Assembly (NCBI GenBank): GCA_003056265.1
Contig: NBVN01000016.1
Span: forward strand, 1 to 6,460
From: Zestosphaera tikiterensis
GTDB taxonomy: Archaea; Thermoproteota; Thermoprotei_A; Sulfolobales; NBVN01
DNA length: 6,460 nt
Direction of reading: 5' to 3'
Shown piece by piece: positions 3 through 6,033 of the stretch; the stretch's first letter is position 1, and each line of letters begins with the position of its first letter. The position numbers and the translations under genes are program-made. Below the pieces are notes generated by a model that made no database searches, was not told where the DNA came from, and worked only from the letters and a program-made list of their open reading frames with translations.

Positions 3-782
3 GGCTACAACCCAGATAATCTTGTATCCGTCGACATTAACGAGAACAACGTAACTCTAGCAATTTTTAAGAATAGAACACTTGAGGAATTCGTCAGGAT
101 AGAGACAAAGCTCGGAAAGATCGTTATAGCATATTCCGAGAGGAGGAAGAGGATAGAGAAAGGTAAGTCAACCAAGACTAGAAGTGTAAGGAAAGCTTTA
201 AGAAAGCTTAAGGAAAGGAAAAGGAAGCTTGATATCATATATAAGGTGGCGAGGGTCATAGAAAACGTAGCTAGAATGTATAACGCTAGAGTTGTGGTTG
301 GTGATGTTTACGTTAATAAGGATGATATACTTGAGAAGGTTGTAGATGATAAGCTTAGACATAGAATACATCAGTGGAGCGTTTCTAAGTTGGTGGGCGT
401 TCTCAGTCAGAAGCCTCTGTATGTTGAGTGTGTGCCTGAAGAGGGTTCTTCCAATAGAGATCCGTTTAGAAAACGTAGAAAGCTTATGTATGCCTCCGCA
501 GTGATCCGTTTTGTGAAGGTGAGCGGGGGCTTTAGGAGAAGAGTTAAAGTTGAGAAAGCAACCTTAAGAACAGCAAGACTAAGTAATGGATGGATCCTAG
601 ATAGGGATATGGTTGGATCTCTAAACATAGGTCTTAAAGCCCTAAACTCAGATGGGAGCCCCATGGCGTTGGGCTCGACAGAGCCTCATGAAGTGCGGGC
701 GAAGCTAGTGAACCCGTACAGAGGGCTAACCCAGACCACGGAATTAAAAATATTAGGAATATTTAAGGGTACCGTGGTCTAG
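3..782 (+). CDS. tnpB: IS200/IS605-family TnpB (OrfB)-like protein, 5'-truncated by the window edge; apparently degenerate (RuvC-II Glu replaced by Gly, no zinc-ribbon cysteines)
   Basis: Frame 3 is open from nt 3 to TAG 780-782. The ORF-track entry 246..782 is only the part after an internal GTG. The translation GYNPDNLVSVDINENNVTLAIF...RKALRKLKERKRKLDIIYKVARVIENVARMYNARVVVGDV...LRHRIHQWSVSKLVGVLSQKPLYVECVPEEGSS...GWILDRDMVGSLNIGLKAL follows the TnpB/OrfB_IS605 layout. That layout is a RuvC-I block (vDiNe, Asp codon 33-35), a basic helical region, a RuvC-II strand (VVVGD, 291-305), and a C-terminal DRDxNAAxNI-like block (DRDMVGSLNI, 600-629). By-eye motif match only. Confidence 0.75.
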   Translation, partial: GYNPDNLVSVDINENNVTLAIFKNRTLEEFVRIETKLGKIVIAYSERRKRIEKGKSTKTRSVRKALRKLKERKRKLDIIYKVARVIENVARMYNARVVVGDVYVNKDDILEKVVDDKLRHRIHQWSVSKLVGVLSQKPLYVECVPEEGSSNRDPFRKRRKLMYASAVIRFVKVSGGFRRRVKVEKATLRTARLSNGWILDRDMVGSLNIGLKALNSDGSPMALGSTEPHEVRAKLVNPYRGLTQTTELKILGIFKGTVV

Positions 783-1204: not shown

Positions 1205-1387
1205 TCATCCAACTTCACCCACCTTCATCTCCAGAAGCCCGGCTTTTTCCAAATCCTCCCTTATTAAGCTTCGCAGGTAATCACTTACGCTTATGTAGCC
1301 CTTCATATCTATACGCCTTAGGATTAAAGACCTCCATTCAATAGGAACAACAAGACCTATATGCCACATCTTTTTTCTTTCTCTCAT
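1205..1387 (-). CDS. Ribbon-helix-helix (CopG/Arc/MetJ-like) DNA-binding protein, 60 aa
   Basis: MRERKKMWHIGLVVPIEWRSLILRRIDMKGYISVSDYLRSLIREDLEKAGLL shows the RHH pattern. This is an N-terminal beta-strand (HIGLVVP), helix 1 (EWRSLILRRID), a G-containing turn, and helix 2 with the typical S.S(D/E)YlR.lI signature. GGTG lies at 1399-1396, 8 nt upstream of ATG 1387-1385. A TATA box lies about 35 nt upstream. Confidence 0.75.
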   Translation of the reverse strand: MRERKKMWHIGLVVPIEWRSLILRRIDMKGYISVSDYLRSLIREDLEKAGLLEMKVGEVG

Positions 1388-1449: not shown

Positions 1450-2040
1450 TTAGAGTTCATCCTCGGAAGTCAGTAATACGTAGGTAGCGCCAGCAAGTAA
1501 AGCATTAATCGTGTTTAACGCCATAACCGTTAAGGGGTTTAAGAGAGTTGAAGTTAGGCTGTTTACGTGGTAGTACGTCCTACCGAAGTTTACCAAGCCT
1601 GCTGACGTATAGAATACGTTATCAACGCTTAACCCACTTACTTCAGTCGTTAAGATCCTAACTATTGAGAGTAGTAACGTACTCATGGCTACCGATGCTA
1701 AACCACCGCCTAAAAGCAACTCCACCGCCGAAAGTAAGGAGTTAAACTTCTTAAAAACATACGTTAGTAAGGCATAAGCTGAAGAAGCGATTAAAAACGT
1801 GGATAACATAAATAAAGGAATGGTTAAAACCCTCACAGCATCTAACGAAGCAACACGCACTACCTCACCATAGTAGCTCAGTAGATACCATAAGAGAGCG
1901 ACCTCACCCTCCACAACGCCGTGGAAACGGTAGATAGGCGTCACTACAGACGTTATTAACGTCAACCCTAAGAACGTAGCGGAAACGCAGGCCAGTATGT
2001 AAAGCACCTTAACCTTTGAAGTCAACCCTCCTCCTCTCAA
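1450..2040 (-). CDS. Polytopic integral membrane protein (about 5 predicted TM helices), last gene of the fibre operon; unknown family
   Basis: The 196-aa ORF is dominated by hydrophobic stretches (VLYILACVSATFLGLTLITSVV, VLTIPLFMLSTFLIASSAYALLTYVF, LLLGGGLASVAMSTLLLSIV, LTVMALNTINALLAGATYVLL). The start is uncertain. The track uses TTG 2040, which overlaps the upstream gene by 32 nt. TTG 2025-2023 directly follows GGAGGAGGG. GTG 2007-2005 begins 1 nt after the upstream TAA (2011-2009). All three options imply translational coupling to the peptidase gene. Confidence 0.7.
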   Translation of the reverse strand: MRGGGLTSKVKVLYILACVSATFLGLTLITSVVTPIYRFHGVVEGEVALLWYLLSYYGEVVRVASLDAVRVLTIPLFMLSTFLIASSAYALLTYVFKKFNSLLSAVELLLGGGLASVAMSTLLLSIVRILTTEVSGLSVDNVFYTSAGLVNFGRTYYHVNSLTSTLLNPLTVMALNTINALLAGATYVLLTSEDEL

Positions 2041-3139
2041 GAACTACCCCACCCCCGCCGTAAGGCCAGAACTTAAACTCGTATTTAAACTCTACGTAAG
2101 CATATCTACTGCCGTTTACAGGCATCACATCTATCGTTAAGGACTTCCCAGCCCCCACGACGTAATCGCTTAAGTACTCAATCTTCAAAACCTCAGGTGT
2201 GTTGAAGGGTTGCTTAACCCCCATGTAAATCACTTTAACTTCAGTTAAGTTGAATTGAATGTAGTTTGGGTTGTTAATAACTACTGAGTTGTTAATCACC
2301 GATACTTGAAGCGCCCTCCAGTTTATAGTGTATGAATACCTCCCCTCAACCCACCCCTTATCGAACGTTATGTTTAGCCTTAAGCTTACGTAAGTTATGT
2401 AGTTATTTGAAGCTCTATAGGCGTAGCTATACACCTCCCTAGGCACTTCAACAACAGCTACGGAACCCACTAAACGATGCGTTAAACATGGGAAGGTAGC
2501 GTTTAGTAAGGTAACCTCACATAAACTTACGTTTAGAGGCTCAGCGTTTTCAACTGTGAAGGTTAAGTAGACACTACCCCCATCTTTAGAGACTTCCATA
2601 CCCCTTAACTCAACCGAAGGCTTAATTAAAACCGTTGCCGGGCTGAAGTACTGAACACCCACTAAAAACACGGTAGCTATGTCAACGATCACGAAAAATA
2701 TGAATACTGCGTAAGCCACCCTCATCTCACCCGGCGTGATGGTCTTAAGCGTTGAGGCTATCTCCCTACGCTTCTTGAAGACGTAGAAAGCAGTTAATGC
2801 GAGGACAGCAGGAATCCAAAACTCACTAGGTATGTGGGACACGACCTTATACTTAACGAACGAAGCAGGTATTGAAGGATCTGGCAACGGGTTATTATCG
2901 CCTTTAGTTACTACATACCCTTCAGAAACGTTAACAACCCTATGTATAGTTCCATACGCTACCGTAGCATACCAAACAACAACATCACCAACCCCATAAC
3001 CACTTAAATACGTAGCAACACCTAAAACGAAATCCCCAGTCTTAAGAGTTGGAAGCATGGAATCCCCGGAAACCACGAAGAGAGCTACGGGAAACCAAAC
3101 CAACCTACCTAAAACAAGTGTGAGGACCGCTACCGCCAT
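2009..3139 (-). CDS. Type I signal peptidase, S26B (archaeal/ER Sec11 / Bacillus SipW type), fused to two further TM helices and an approximately 210-aa beta-rich extracellular C-terminal extension
   Basis: The N-terminal TM segment is followed by the S26 boxes. These are SGDSMLPTL (catalytic Ser codon 3061-3059), GDVVVW, GTIHRVV (a His rather than Lys general base, so S26B), and TKGDNNPLPD. Next come FWIPAVLALTAFYVF-KKRRE and VAYAVFIFFVIVDIATVFLVGV. After these is a Val/Asn/Tyr-rich region with six N-x-S/T sequons (NVS, NAT, NIT, NNS, NLT, NGS), with a seventh (NVS) in the peptidase domain, consistent with an exposed, glycosylated domain. Confidence 0.85.
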   Translation of the reverse strand: MAVAVLTLVLGRLVWFPVALFVVSGDSMLPTLKTGDFVLGVATYLSGYGVGDVVVWYATVAYGTIHRVVNVSEGYVVTKGDNNPLPDPSIPASFVKYKVVSHIPSEFWIPAVLALTAFYVFKKRREIASTLKTITPGEMRVAYAVFIFFVIVDIATVFLVGVQYFSPATVLIKPSVELRGMEVSKDGGSVYLTFTVENAEPLNVSLCEVTLLNATFPCLTHRLVGSVAVVEVPREVYSYAYRASNNYITYVSLRLNITFDKGWVEGRYSYTINWRALQVSVINNSVVINNPNYIQFNLTEVKVIYMGVKQPFNTPEVLKIEYLSDYVVGAGKSLTIDVMPVNGSRYAYVEFKYEFKFWPYGGGGVVLERRRVDFKG

Positions 3140-3210: not shown

Positions 3211-5279
3211 TTAAACACTAACCTCTAAAAGAACGTAATCTAGGTAAAGCCGGTAATCTAGGTCTGTATTGCCTTTCGAAGATATGTTAACTTGAATTAC
3301 GGCGAGGTATTCGTTACTGAATTCCAGTAGGTCTGAAGGGATTGCGTAGCTATATACGTCGTAAGAACTTGACGGCGTTAAAGAAGCACTCCACACTATG
3401 CTGCCGTTGCTTAAGTCAATTATGGATATGGTTAAGCTCTGACTGCTTAACTGACCTTCCGGTTGCGCTTCATATCTACACCTAACTTCAAGCTTAAGGT
3501 CCCCGGCAATCCTAGGAGCTGTGAACACTTGCTGAATTAAAGCTACGTCGCCGCCGACCCCCTTAGGTAGTGTACCGTTTAGAAGGGCTACACCGCCTAA
3601 TGCTTGAAGGTCTGTTGAGGAAACCCACTTCAAGTAAGTACCGCTTACTACCTCCCAATGGCTTAGGGATTCGTTGAAATCATAATTCAAAAGCAATTGA
3701 GCGGGGACTACCTCATCGAGGTACCCGCTTTCATCCCCTAGAGCTTCAGACTCGCTATAAGGTTCGTAGGAGGTTTCCGAAGGGTTGGTTGCGGGTTGAG
3801 GTTCAGCATAGCTTAAGGTTGGGTCGGGGTCAATAAGCTGTATGGTTAACGGGTATATAACGCAGGCGCCGACGTAGTTAGGACCGCCTACACATCCGAT
3901 AACTTTCAATACTAAAGTGGAGGTTGATCCCGATGAAGCGTAAGCGCTTCCAACGACTACGTGTTTAGTAGAGCTAGACGGTAGAAACACCCAATCAGTA
4001 GAGGTTGAGGTAGGGGCGCCGTTCACGATCGTTATCTTTTGTGAATTGCCTTCAACGTATATCTCTGCGTTAAGGCTTGAATCTATGGTTGATGAGCCTA
4101 CGTCAAGCTCAAGCATTAAGTAATAATTCTGAGTGGCTGTTAAGTCGACTGCGTAGAACGAGGTTAAAGCGTTAGAACTCGACGAAACGTATGCGGTTAC
4201 GACCGCGTTAGTTCCCGTAGGACCTATAGACGTGGATAGCGTATGTGTGTTAAGGCTGTAGTTATCGCCGCCTAGGAAAGCATCGCTAGTGGGTATTGAT
4301 GCATTCAGACAGAGAAGGCTCCCGTCCGGGTAGGCTATCCTTATATTGCCGTCGCTACCCGTACCCAGAACTACATCTGGAGTAACGCTTAGGCTGTACG
4401 TGCTTGATGTAGCCGTGAAGCTGTATGTAAGCGTGCCGAGGTTGTCGTAGATGTTGAATATCAGCCCGCTCCGAAGATTTGTGAAAGTTACGGTTCTGGG
4501 ATCCCTAGTTGAGATTATGAAGTCGTCGAACCTACCGTAGTTGCCGTCCACCTCAAGACCTATGTAGGCTGGAGTAAACCTTCTTGCTGATGTGCTACTC
4601 GCCGTTAAGTATGCCACTTGATTGCCGTTGGGGTCATAGACCCACACATAGAAGTTCACAGCTGTTGTCGTAGCAACGTAGTTCAGCACTATAGTGTACC
4701 AGTAGCCGGAGTTAAAACTGCTGAAGGCGGCACTACCTAATTGACTCCAACCACCGGCCCTTTCAACGTTGTAACTCCGTACATAAATCACGTTGTTGTA
4801 TATCGATATCTCGTAGAGCCTATTCGTTCCGGAGTTAATCAGGGCTAAACCTTTATATGTAGTAGTCGGTGAGCCGTAGACCTTCAGAGTCACCCACAGA
4901 GATGTGTATGTAGTGTCCAACCTAGTGTTGTAGTAGTACTGTGAAGCCCCGCCGATGCCTCCACCGTTGTCGCTGTACTGGAGTGCGTTGCCTTTATGAC
5001 CACCGGATACTATGGAGGTTGTCCCGCCCCTGCTAGCCCACCCACTTGGAAGACTCTCGAAGTCTGTGTACGTTACAGCACCTCTATAGGTTCTCACTAG
5101 TGCTATGCATGTGTAGCTGTAGGGTGGATTAGTAAATGTGAGTGTGGGGTTAACCCCCCGAGTATTCACGGAGGTAGGGTAGTAGGCGAATACGGAAGCA
5201 TAAACAGAAGGTATGATGAGGACTAGGAGCGACGTGACTAATATATAAAAAAACTTAGTTTCGGCTTAGGGTGTTTCAT
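3211..5279 (-). CDS. Large secreted multidomain protein (about 689 aa if joined): signal peptide, ConA/LamG-like lectin domain, Ser/Thr-rich beta region, acidic linker, CBM-like C-terminal beta-sandwich. It needs a -1 frameshift (or a T8 allele) at 5247-5253; candidate fibre-associated adhesin
   Basis: The track ORF 3211..5169 starts at an internal GTG. Its frame stays open upstream to 5265 and encodes KFFYILVTSLLVLIIPSVYASVFAYYPTS, a signal-peptide-like core, but has no ATG/GTG/TTG there. ATG 5279-5277 is preceded by GGTGA (5291-5287, 6-nt spacer) and opens MKHPKPKLSFF in the other frame. It meets the long frame inside a T7 run. Domain calls are by eye. The lectin-like part reads FESLPSGW..GNALQ..YWYTIVLNY..FYVWVYDPNGN..IGLEVDGNYGRFDDFII. 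The linker reads DPDPTLSYAEPQPATNPSETSYEPYSESEALGDESGYLDEVVP (3706-3831). The C-terminal part reads NYDFNESLSHWEVV...LYLDYVLLEVSV. Confidence 0.8.
5247..5253 (-). other. Homopolymer T7 (A7 on the + strand), equivalent to the slippery heptamer U UUU UUU at the junction of the two reading frames of the large secreted protein gene
   Basis: Read directly. Frame A (from ATG 5279) reads AGT TTT TTT ATA TAT TAG. Frame B (the long ORF) reads AAG TTT TTT TAT ATA TTA. A -1 slip on the T run, or one extra T, fuses them. Confidence 0.7.
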
Positions 5280-5294
5280 TCTTGCTCACCATTA

Positions 5295-5927
5295 TTAAGG
5301 TGGCTCAGTATTCTGCGGGCTGTATATCAATTCCAGAACTGCTGTATCGCTTACTGAGCCTGCGTTAACGTTTCTATCTATCTGTATCTCTATGTCTATA
5401 TATAGCTTTCCGGGCGTAATAACTGTATTACCATTCTGGTCAGTTGTCTGAGTAGCTTTGGGAATCGTGATGTAGTTTGGATAGGCTGGCTGTATCGTAT
5501 TTGATTTGAGGTCTATTGTAGCTATGGCAACATTTGGAGGATCTTTAGGCGAAGTCTTTATGTACAGCGTGGCTGAGATTATGTATTGGTTAGATATGGG
5601 TGTATTGACCTTTATCCACGCGTAGTAGTACCTGTTGACTCCGTGGTTCTCTATCCCTAAGACGTCCCTGTAGTATGTTTTCTCGTTTGTCGGGTGTATA
5701 GTTATGGTGGCTTTAGTGTTGTAGCTACCATCTAAGTTTACAGTTATTGTTCGACTGGCTAAATCGCTTTTACCAGCGTTGCTACCTACTGCGAACCTGA
5801 CCTCAGCTTCGGTGCCGCTAATGTTCACAGTTAGCCCGTAGTAGACGAAGACGCTGGCGTTTACCACAGCTACGGCTACAGCTAAAGCCACTAGCACTAA
5901 CAACGTTCTTTTCTGCTTTCCATTCAT
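5295..5927 (-). CDS. Secreted TasA/camelysin-like (archaeal bundling pilin AbpA-like) fibre subunit candidate, 210 aa; first gene of the operon
   Basis: The N-terminus MNGKQKRTLLVLVALAVAVAVVNASVFVYYG has a basic n-region, a hydrophobic core, and then an A-S-V-F-V-Y-Y segment. That segment resembles the G-T-(F/W)-A-x-F segment of SipW-dependent signal peptides in TasA-family proteins. The mature part is an all-beta-looking, Thr/Asn/Ile-rich domain of about 180 aa with no Cys. It sits in one operon with a SipW-type peptidase. The fold assignment is an inference from context and N-terminal pattern, not from an alignment. Confidence 0.6.
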   Translation of the reverse strand: MNGKQKRTLLVLVALAVAVAVVNASVFVYYGLTVNISGTEAEVRFAVGSNAGKSDLASRTITVNLDGSYNTKATITIHPTNEKTYYRDVLGIENHGVNRYYYAWIKVNTPISNQYIISATLYIKTSPKDPPNVAIATIDLKSNTIQPAYPNYITIPKATQTTDQNGNTVITPGKLYIDIEIQIDRNVNAGSVSDTAVLELIYSPQNTEPP

Positions 5928-5961
5928 TTTATTTTACCCTATTAAACCATATATTTTTCAG

Positions 5962-5970
5962 TTTATAAAA
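5962..5970 (-). promoter_or_regulatory. TATA box (minus-strand TTTTATAAA) for the fibre operon
   Basis: Its downstream (3') end at 5962 lies 35 nt upstream of ATG 5927 (43 nt from the 5' end at 5970). No SD motif lies in between, which fits a short-leader or leaderless first gene, as is usual in Crenarchaeota. The element is near-palindromic, so direction rests on spacing only. Confidence 0.4.
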
Positions 5971-6033
5971 TTCTACTATGTTTTTAGATTCTCACCTTAT
6001 TGGTCGTGTATTTCTGAACTTTGCCAAGAACTG

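Follow-up and report, generated by a model that had tools for sequence, protein, structure and literature searches.

The window analysed here, a 6,460-nucleotide stretch that opens contig NBVN01000016.1 of Zestosphaera tikiterensis (GenBank assembly GCA_003056265.1), probably holds a four-gene pilus operon of an Ignisphaera relative, consisting of a pilin, a large lectin-like accessory protein, a dedicated signal peptidase I and a membrane protein, with all of the relevant genes on the minus strand. Two of the products, the 210-residue pilin and the large protein, share the heptad A-S-V-F-(V/A)-Y-Y directly after the core of a signal peptide, and we infer that this heptad straddles the signal peptidase I site, such that its Ala is residue -1 and SVF(V/A)YY makes up the first six residues of the mature chain. 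The segment SVFxYY most likely begins a mature donor strand that is inserted into the next pilin subunit. Strand donation is proposed for both proteins, and the best reading of the large one is that of a tip, cap or nucleator that donates a strand, like TapA, AbpB and Saci_0405, accessory proteins of three characterised filament systems that are compared below.

The heptad had been pointed out in a preliminary description made from the bare sequence, and translation of the minus strand confirms it: the pilin reads ...AVAVVN-ASVFVYY-GLTV and the frame of the large protein ...IIPSVY-ASVFAYY-PTSV, with a hydrophobic signal-peptide core ahead of each. Taken alone, the match is suggestive but weak evidence (a pair of 7-mers with at least six identities arose somewhere in the two proteins in 15 of 300 shuffles), and it is position and conservation that make it real. 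A homologue search with the 210-residue protein returned 58 relatives, from Desulfurococcales and from metagenome-assembled genomes of other Thermoproteota, and their N-termini are uniform: the n-region is charged, a hydrophobic core follows, and the predicted cut is preceded by (V/A)-x-(A/S) and followed by (S/A)-V-F-(V/T/A)-Y-Y-P. Eleven columns, F27, Y29 and Y30 among them, are invariant in an alignment of 35 members that diverge down to 32% identity, and the motif is the most conserved block of the family. Among 38 distinct pilin N-termini, all 38 have F at +3 and Y at +5 and +6, all have V or A at -3 and A or S at -1, and 35 have P at +7; the mature chain would begin with S, A or G across the family.

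The large protein behaves in the same way. A search with it returned 105 relatives, the best named one being Igag_1321 of Ignisphaera aggregans DSM 17230 (85% identity), and those orthologs that have an annotated N-terminus mostly read ...Y-A/G↓S-V-F-x-Y-Y-P, where the arrow marks the predicted cut. The pattern [ASG][VIA]F.YY was looked for in 263,000 residues of six-frame open reading frames (ORFs) covering 32 loci, namely L001, a metagenome contig 96% identical to the window, and 31 loci found by scanning one genome per species. It occurred 46 times, and in 44 of these cases it stands at the N-terminus of a pilin or of the product of the adjacent gene. The motif is thus found to be kept in orthologous pairs of pilin and large protein, and its loss from such pairs was the first outcome that the preliminary description had named as fatal to its proposal.

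The two proteins had been described as showing no obvious similarity beyond the heptad, but their likeness in fact extends for some 22 residues past the predicted cut. Counted from that cut, both protein classes have a hydrophobic or aromatic block at +2 to +6, P at +7, at +14 and, as PP, at +17/+18, and hydrophobic residues at +8, +10, +12, +19 and +21, those at +8 to +12 in alternation with Ser, Thr or Asn. Across 23 non-redundant locus pairs this module is carried by second proteins whose bodies are unrelated, and dozens of archaeal loci have the motif and some 15 more residues at the N-terminus encoded by the gene downstream of the pilin. Homology to the large protein is not universal among second proteins: those of several loci match it by the C-terminal domain only, or nowhere, yet have the module, which is degenerate in some (TVFTYYA, NVFVYAP, SLYVFYP). 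There is also a fused architecture in which a multi-pass membrane domain stands in front of the lectin-like protein; here the module follows the last transmembrane helix, at about residue 235, and a small-x-small site precedes it (e.g., SLA↓SIFSYYP, ALA↓SVFIYYP). When the pilin profile was searched against 1.84 billion representative proteins, 188 relatives were recovered at E <= 0.001, including a thread-like representative (TA↓DVIYYYS) and three long second proteins that were found through their N-terminal 45-70 residues alone (E=4.5e-7, 4.3e-6 and 1.9e-5). A local search gave the same N-terminal-only picture for orthologs of the large protein.

In Pfam and NCBIfam, neither the pilin nor the large protein nor the membrane protein had a significant match, and a single-sequence phmmer search of the pilin against the PDB returned noise only. 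A profile of the 35 pilin members, searched against the same database, matched Saci_0406, the subunit of the Sulfolobus acidocaldarius thread (7pnb_A), at E=1.3e-7, aligning query residues 1-185 with residues 1-198 of the chain. The AlphaFold2 (AF2) model of the pilin, with a predicted local distance difference test (pLDDT) score of 93.4, has a helix at residues 3-22 and no regular secondary structure at residues 23-42. By Foldseek its best match is AbpA of Pyrobaculum calidifontis (7ueg; E=5.4e-7, template-modelling scores (TM-scores) 0.56/0.64), followed by the thread (7pnb; E=1.4e-6), with TM-scores of 0.54-0.64 over these matches; cannulae and type 1 pilins were also found, as were weak matches to FimA and FimG. 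For AbpA the likeness is one of fold only, since neither phmmer nor the profile search against the PDB gave a sequence match to 7ueg. Because of the profile match to Saci_0406 and the fold matches, the 210-residue protein is, as far as prediction goes, a donor-strand pilin of the TasA superfamily with the Sulfolobus thread as its closest relative by sequence, and it is thread-like in its whole-length homology, its modelled fold and its predicted Sec signal peptide followed by a conserved aromatic tail. The TasA likeness suggested earlier therefore holds for the superfamily and not for the TasA family by sequence: PF12389 (Peptidase_M73/TasA, camelysin) does not match the pilin at E up to 0.1. 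NCBIfam has a curated model for the SipW-cognate signal peptide, and no such model was among the NCBIfam matches of either window protein at E up to 0.1. Directly after the tail, the pilin residues G48, N50 and D55 (GSNAxxxDL; 5766-5786) are invariant in the family and are not aligned with Asn57 of the thread; they may bind a metal or take part in a cross-link.

Cleavage after the Ala is predicted from homology to the N-terminus of Saci_0406, as seen by cryo-electron microscopy (cryo-EM), and from the -3/-1 rule. In a gap-free profile alignment, ...VVNA SVFVYYP... of the pilin lies over ...VLVA DVIYYYQ... of Saci_0406, whose tail is DVIYYYQGQITVGNVAPPMYFA. According to the description of the thread, the mature chain of Saci_0406 starts at Asp24 after LVA by cryo-EM, the first seven mature residues, YYY motif included, are identical among its homologs, and the strand that is donated is the N-terminal one, which lies buried in subunits n-1 and n-2 (PMC9715654). 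The preliminary description had also worried that cleavage might fall downstream of the motif and remove it from both mature proteins, and by this homology the cut would lie upstream of six of the seven motif residues. It had further offered the heptad as either a cleavage determinant or a donor strand; the alignment to Saci_0406 supports each of these in part, and since they are mutually compatible only the "either/or" has to be given up. A class III signal of the type IV pilin kind was rejected for both window proteins, in which n-region, h-region and A-x-A follow in that order and the conserved segment comes after the hydrophobic core.

The events that can be envisioned are as follows. The peptidase would cut after the Ala, at V-N-A↓S in the pilin and at V-Y-A↓S in the large protein, and the new N-terminus would be S-V-F-x-Y-Y-P, with about 15 residues of amphipathic, extended chain behind it. 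On the pilin, such a tail would serve as a donor strand into the beta-sheet of neighbouring subunits and so polymerise the filament as in the Sulfolobus threads. The large protein, with the same tail on a lectin-like head, would donate a strand to the pilin but accept none, and because it has a donor strand and no pilin-like acceptor domain it would sit at the one filament end that has an open pilin groove, acting as tip adhesin, cap or nucleator. The tail is unstructured in both monomer models, which fits a strand that becomes ordered only in the groove of its partner.

From its N-terminus onward, the large protein is encoded as a signal-peptide core, the donor-strand tail, a lectin-like head, more beta domains, an acidic linker and a C-terminal beta sandwich. 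Its AF2 model (mean pLDDT 80.7) has a signal helix, a free tail (pLDDT <50 at residues 24-37), a domain modelled with confidence (about 42-255), more beta domains as far as about 480, an acidic and Pro-rich linker that is disordered (pLDDT <50 at 485-555) and strands at 555-681. In the PDB, Foldseek matched the lectin-like domain to peanut lectin (2pel), Platypodium lectin (3zvx/3zyr) and the A domain of SasG (7smh), a staphylococcal adhesin whose A domain is an L-type lectin, with a probability of 1.0 and TM-scores of about 0.45-0.5 relative to the target; no pilin-like structure was among the best 50 Foldseek matches listed for the large protein. The lectin-like nature supposed in the preliminary description is thus borne out by the legume-lectin-like head of the model, and its idea that this protein plugs into the fibre gains support from the shared and conserved donor-strand module. 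The lectin fold, as modelled, favours a tip adhesin over a proximal anchor. In three loci (L002, L009, L014) the C-terminal domain forms part of a shorter second protein. When metagenomes were scanned with the large protein, the relatives that came back were all about 47% identical to it, and the close clade was not among them.

The same lectin-like head (49% identity over ~300 residues) also occurs on proteins of ~875 residues that have class III-like, that is type IV pilin-like, N-termini (P0144, P0149, P0152-P0155, P0158, P0159 and P0163). JGI labels some of these as flagellin-like, a class III or flagellin-like reading that Pfam did not confirm. The head may be a modular adhesin for which the N-terminal module decides the carrier filament.

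The most serious alternative, although an unlikely one, is that the conserved stretch serves only as a substrate-recognition element for the operon peptidase, from P1 to about P6', and has no role in assembly. The motif does co-occur strictly with a dedicated S26 peptidase gene, small residues are kept at -3 and -1, and in the fused proteins the motif is retained after an internal transmembrane helix, where cleavage is the obvious use for it. However, conservation continues for ~22 residues past the cut, and the active site of a signal peptidase is not expected to make contacts that far beyond it. The segment is also homologous to the structurally defined donor strand of Saci_0406, and positions +7 to +22 covary between the two proteins of one locus; recognition and assembly are in any case not exclusive roles. 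For these positions the mean BLOSUM62 score is 28.0 within loci and 20.5 between loci, with 5.5 and 4.4 identities, respectively, in 16 positions, and the observed score was reached in 0 of 20,000 permutations of the 23 locus pairs, a test that ignores phylogenetic relatedness and in which related loci inflate the score, so the covariation is supportive only.

Besides this limit of the covariation test, four points weigh against the proposal that both proteins donate a strand. The family is known from sequences and monomer models alone. A monomer model can reveal neither an acceptor groove nor the lack of one, and the structural comparison of the large protein covered its 50 best-ranked matches. 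The Asp24/Asn57 pair of the intermolecular isopeptide bond proposed for the thread (PMC9715654) is not conserved in the window family, where the N-terminal residue is not Asp and the column aligned with Asn57 is not Asn. Finally, expression of the signal peptide and motif of the large protein, in the window and in its closest relatives, would depend on a putative recoding event.

This last point arises from the 5′ end of the large gene, which is interrupted. The only canonical in-frame start of the large ORF is a GTG at 5169, downstream of the motif. Further upstream in the gene frame, an ATG at 5292-5290 and a GTG at 5289-5287 (M V S K N E T P) are homologous to the start of intact relatives, and a TAA at 5268-5266 follows eight codons after this homologous start. 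In another frame, an ATG at 5279 opens a charged n-region (MKHPKPKLSFF) and a short ORF (MKHPKPKLSFFIY, then stop) that ends at TAG 5240-5238. A -1 slip on a tract of seven T residues (T7), or one extra U, joins the ATG-5279 frame to the gene frame and yields MKHPKPKLSFFYILVTSLLVLIIPSVYA↓SVFAYYP. Since the motif lies upstream of GTG 5169 and the gene frame is closed by the TAA, the motif of the large protein would be translated only with recoding at T7.

The same arrangement of T7 followed by A is found in seven related sequences: the 96%-identical contig L001, the finished genome of the I. aggregans isolate (L033), an independent assembly of the same (L034, identical to L033) and four metagenome orthologs (L064, L065, L068 and L069). 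I. aggregans has a TTG start and the n-region RHIHKPNNFF, and L069 has no canonical start in the upstream frame. A slippery heptamer of the form X XXY YYZ is present, as AG-T TTT TTT-A in the ATG-5279 frame and within the overlap of the two frames, and recurs in six other distinct sequences. When L064 is compared with I. aggregans, the changes in the alternative frame are conservative (K to R, and a synonymous N codon) and the gene frame has gained a stop; upstream of T7 more generally, the alternative frame keeps K/R/H-rich residues and a start codon, and the gene frame accumulates stops. Two relatives are intact in the gene frame, L066 with T7 and L067 with T6. No stimulatory RNA structure was predicted in the 70 nt downstream, for which the minimum free energy (MFE) is -0.5 to -2.7 kcal/mol in eight T7-bearing sequences; in L067, with its T6, the downstream MFE is -4.1 kcal/mol, and z-scores are -0.36 or higher.

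It is plausible that T7 is a site of recoding, either by -1 ribosomal frameshifting or by transcriptional slippage. Stop-codon readthrough is judged less likely than a change of frame, given the two in-frame stops in L064 and L069, and an ATA start after the stop was rejected as it is not conserved in L069. The fucA1 gene of Sulfolobus solfataricus has a programmed -1 frameshift, with two frames that overlap at a homopolymeric slippery heptamer. The window gene resembles it as an archaeal gene split between two frames at a slippery heptamer and differs in having its site where a pilus accessory gene codes for the signal peptide and in coming without a predicted downstream RNA structure. In a further locus, L063 (about 3900-4000), A6T6 stands in place of T7, and it would take a +1 change to pass from the ATG frame into that of the gene. 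A fixed -1 ribosomal frameshift accounts for this less well than slippage or variation in tract length does; a sequencing error is another possible cause.

Archaeal RNA polymerase terminates at oligo-T tracts, and the T7 tract might double as a terminator or attenuator of this kind and limit expression of the downstream accessory genes. A tentative extension of the recoding proposal, on the doubtful side, is that in the Ignisphaera clade the tip gene is expressed only via recoding at T7, perhaps with attenuation, and that this element sets a low ratio of tip protein to pilin.

The interruption could instead mean that the large gene of the window is a decaying pseudogene and its motif an untranslated relic without present function, which we consider very improbable. 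It is true that a TAA interrupts the gene frame, that the single ATG to be followed by a charged n-region lies in another frame, and that gene callers start the orthologs after or inside the motif. Yet the ~2-kb body is open in all of the sequences compared and has kept 85% identity to the I. aggregans ortholog, and it is mainly on this ground that decay is doubted. The same interruption recurs in at least seven distinct sequences, a finished isolate genome included, and in those orthologs for which upstream DNA was read, the signal-peptide core and motif are open and conserved in the gene frame upstream of the annotated start; the start codon and basic residues retained in the alternative frame upstream of T7 likewise speak against decay. 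The clade's other orthologs of the large protein show 64-68% identity across roughly two thirds of its length. Least of all, to the point of being negligible, can the heptad be ascribed to chance or to a by-product of two signal peptides in which small residues are followed by beta-prone ones: a 6/7 match somewhere in proteins of such sizes does arise in ~5% of shuffles, but the conservation data refute this explanation, as the motif is invariant in a family diverging to 32% identity, recurs on non-homologous second proteins and was found by a profile search of 1.8 billion proteins.

The enzyme that would make the cut is encoded in the same operon. The peptidase scores 55 bits with TIGR02228 (cutoff 51.85) and only weakly, at 21.7 bits against a cutoff of 190, with the SipW model; Ser27, His66, Asp81 and Asp87 are invariant in 24 homologs, and its profile matches human SEC11A/C at 7e-7. 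Judged by sequence, it is an S26 enzyme of the endoplasmic reticulum (ER)/archaeal type, like SipW, with its catalytic residues intact, and the earlier assignment to this class can be regarded as genuine. An N-terminal transmembrane segment and the catalytic domain are followed by two more transmembrane segments and a beta-rich C-terminal domain of ~200 residues, which by the positive-inside rule is probably extracellular. This domain (about residues 170-376, window 2009-2630) has invariant P174, L178, N290 and Y353 and an NPNY motif; it had no match in Pfam or the PDB, where the profile search found SEC11 only, and a pilin-like or chaperone-like nature was rejected, the hhalign comparison to the pilin giving a probability of 2%. 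It may be an assembly platform. The peptidase gene adjoins the pilin in nearly every locus with enough sequence, and this near-constant linkage suggests a dedicated enzyme. A peptidase homolog in L007 (2049-3173) seemingly lacks the Ser-Met catalytic motif (…VVAGSPWGDGYPL…) and may be an inactive paralog.

The membrane protein is syntenic in L005, L006, L009, L011, L012, L014, L017, L018, L020, L021 and L032. A domain of ~230 residues related to this 196-residue protein is fused N-terminally to the lectin-like protein in P0091-P0146 (e.g., P0105), and in the fusion loci L025, L026, L028 and L029 the order is pilin, peptidase, fusion protein. Because it is fused to the lectin-like protein in other lineages, the membrane protein appears to be tied functionally to the pilus system.

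Among known systems, the closest is the thread of S. acidocaldarius (Saci_0406/Saci_0405, PDB 7pnb). Profile homology, a similar fold and a Sec signal peptide cut after Ala are common to both, as is an aromatic tail directly after the cut (DVIYYY there, SVFVYY here), and in the thread, too, the product of the neighbouring gene, Saci_0405, has a similar tail and is proposed as a possible cap or nucleator of the filament (PMC9715654). The differences lie in the accessory protein, which in the thread is pilin-like and without a signal peptide and in the window is large, lectin-like and multidomain with a signal peptide of its own, and in the peptidase, which is syntenic in the window, whereas the main text passages of PMC9715654 describe no dedicated signal peptidase in the thread cluster.

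The TasA/TapA/SipW system of Bacillus subtilis follows the same operon logic, in which a fibre subunit is encoded together with its accessory protein and with a signal peptidase of the ER type that is dedicated to them. There, SipW is described as processing both TasA and TapA (PMC9245690), and an N-terminal segment of TapA has been reported to complement the subunit (PMC10151520). The window peptidase differs from SipW by its two extra transmembrane segments and its C-terminal domain, and TapA has a fold of its own where the accessory protein of the window has a lectin-like head.

In the AbpA/AbpB system of P. calidifontis, AbpA forms a donor-strand filament with its mature N-terminus after an A-x-A site, and a secreted multidomain protein encoded downstream is proposed to initiate assembly and act as an adhesin (PMC9245690). 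According to the authors no dedicated peptidase lies near that operon (PMC9245690), in contrast to the window. The AbpX loci of Thermoproteota come nearer in content, with a major subunit, tip and minor subunits, a dedicated signal peptidase I and an accessory membrane protein, and AlphaFold 3 predicts that their tip and minor subunits co-assemble by strand donation (bioRxiv 10.64898/2026.01.04.697558). However, the AbpX peptidase has ten transmembrane helices and the accessory protein belongs to DUF5305, neither of which is found in the window operon, and AbpX membership of the pilin was rejected on its different donor-strand signature and peptidase architecture. Chaperone-usher pili (FimA/FimH) also combine donor-strand complementation with a lectin-domain adhesin at the filament end, but FimH accepts a strand and the adhesin of the window family would donate one and so cap the opposite kind of end. 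Scans of the operon proteins against Pfam and NCBIfam found no chaperone or usher families.

It is already an established principle that an accessory protein shares the donor strand of the major subunit, as in TapA, AbpB, Saci_0405 and the AbpX tip proteins, so the main finding extends known biology and overturns nothing. What it would add is a thread-like pilus operon defined in Desulfurococcales, Sulfolobales and other archaeal lineages and not described in the literature searched, where full-text searching found neither the motif nor the Ignisphaera locus tags in any paper. Thread-type pili would also be tied to a signal peptidase dedicated to them, as TasA systems are. The 22-residue "plug-in" module would mark the secreted proteins that join the filament, including those with lectin-like heads that are probably for attachment, and would offer a simple sequence signature by which adhesins associated with pili can be recognised in uncultured hyperthermophiles. 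Less expected is the interrupted 5′ end and its conserved T7, which would make a testable case of recoding in Archaea; if the tentative extension given above were true, one short T7 element would set the tip-to-pilin ratio of a donor-strand pilus in a hyperthermophilic archaeon.

Table 1. Coordinates in the window of the pilus genes and of the features discussed in the text.
Feature	Position	Strand	Basis
210-residue major pilin gene, predicted thread-like member of the TasA superfamily	5295..5927	-	ORF, profile, AF2, Foldseek
Predicted pilin signal peptide, residues 1-24, ending V-N-A	5856..5927	-	helix 3-22, -3/-1 pattern, alignment to Saci_0406 signal peptide
Motif ASVFVYY in pilin, Ala at predicted -1 plus mature +1 to +6	5838..5858	-	residues 24-30 of the 210-residue ORF
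Predicted donor-strand module of pilin, SVFVYYGLTVNISGTEAEVRFA, mature +1 to +22	5790..5855	-	gap-free alignment to Saci_0406 tail
Interrupted 5′ end of large gene	5238..5292	-	translation, ortholog comparison
T7 tract, T TTT TTT then A	5247..5253	-	42 nt after pilin stop codon
Large-protein gene body, one open frame, 684 codons (AETKFFYILV... to stop)	3211..5265	-	85% identity to Igag_1321
Motif ASVFAYY in large protein, preceded by S-V-Y	5179..5199	-	translation; orthologs YA↓SVFxYYP
Predicted donor-strand module of large protein, SVFAYYPTSVNTRGVNPTLTFT	5131..5196	-	low-pLDDT tail, same pattern as pilin tail
Concanavalin-A/legume-lectin-like domain of large protein, model residues about 42-255	4501..5142	-	Foldseek
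C-terminal beta-sandwich domain of large protein, after disordered linker	3223..3603	-	AF2 model
Operon signal peptidase I, 376 residues, archaeal/ER type	2009..3139	-	TIGR02228, invariant catalytic residues
Multi-pass membrane protein, 196 residues, fourth conserved operon gene	1450..2040	-	synteny

The order pilin, second protein, signal peptidase and membrane protein recurs in the 31 loci of the genome scan, and the lineages with a pilus locus include Desulfurococcales, Sulfolobales, Thermogladius, Brockarchaeota and Nezhaarchaeota. An A/T-rich element (TTTATAAA; window 5940-5975, minus strand), ~45 nt upstream of the pilin ATG, resembles an archaeal TATA box, in which case the pilin would be the first gene of the transcription unit. 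Downstream of the operon, a 60-residue ORF (window 1205-1387, minus strand) has a weak ribbon-helix-helix-like match to a nickel-responsive regulator model (E=0.049), and in related loci small AF2212-like genes occupy the neighbourhood downstream of the operon. The C-terminal fragment of a TnpB-like protein (TIGR01766, 25.9 bits, under the cutoff) is encoded on the plus strand at window 246-782, and a full-length Cas12f/TnpB-like gene adjoins the pilus locus in L063 (1991-3199). In one related contig, L062, genes for a glycosyltransferase and a small exosortase/EpsH-like protein lie a few kilobases downstream of the pilus operon (10376-11416). At about 4930-5010 of the same contig, the 3′ end of the pilin (…SSETPP) is joined straight to the motif region of the second gene (…ASVFVYHP), with the intergenic region and signal peptide missing; the junction looks like a deletion or an assembly chimera at a shared GCCTCCG sequence.

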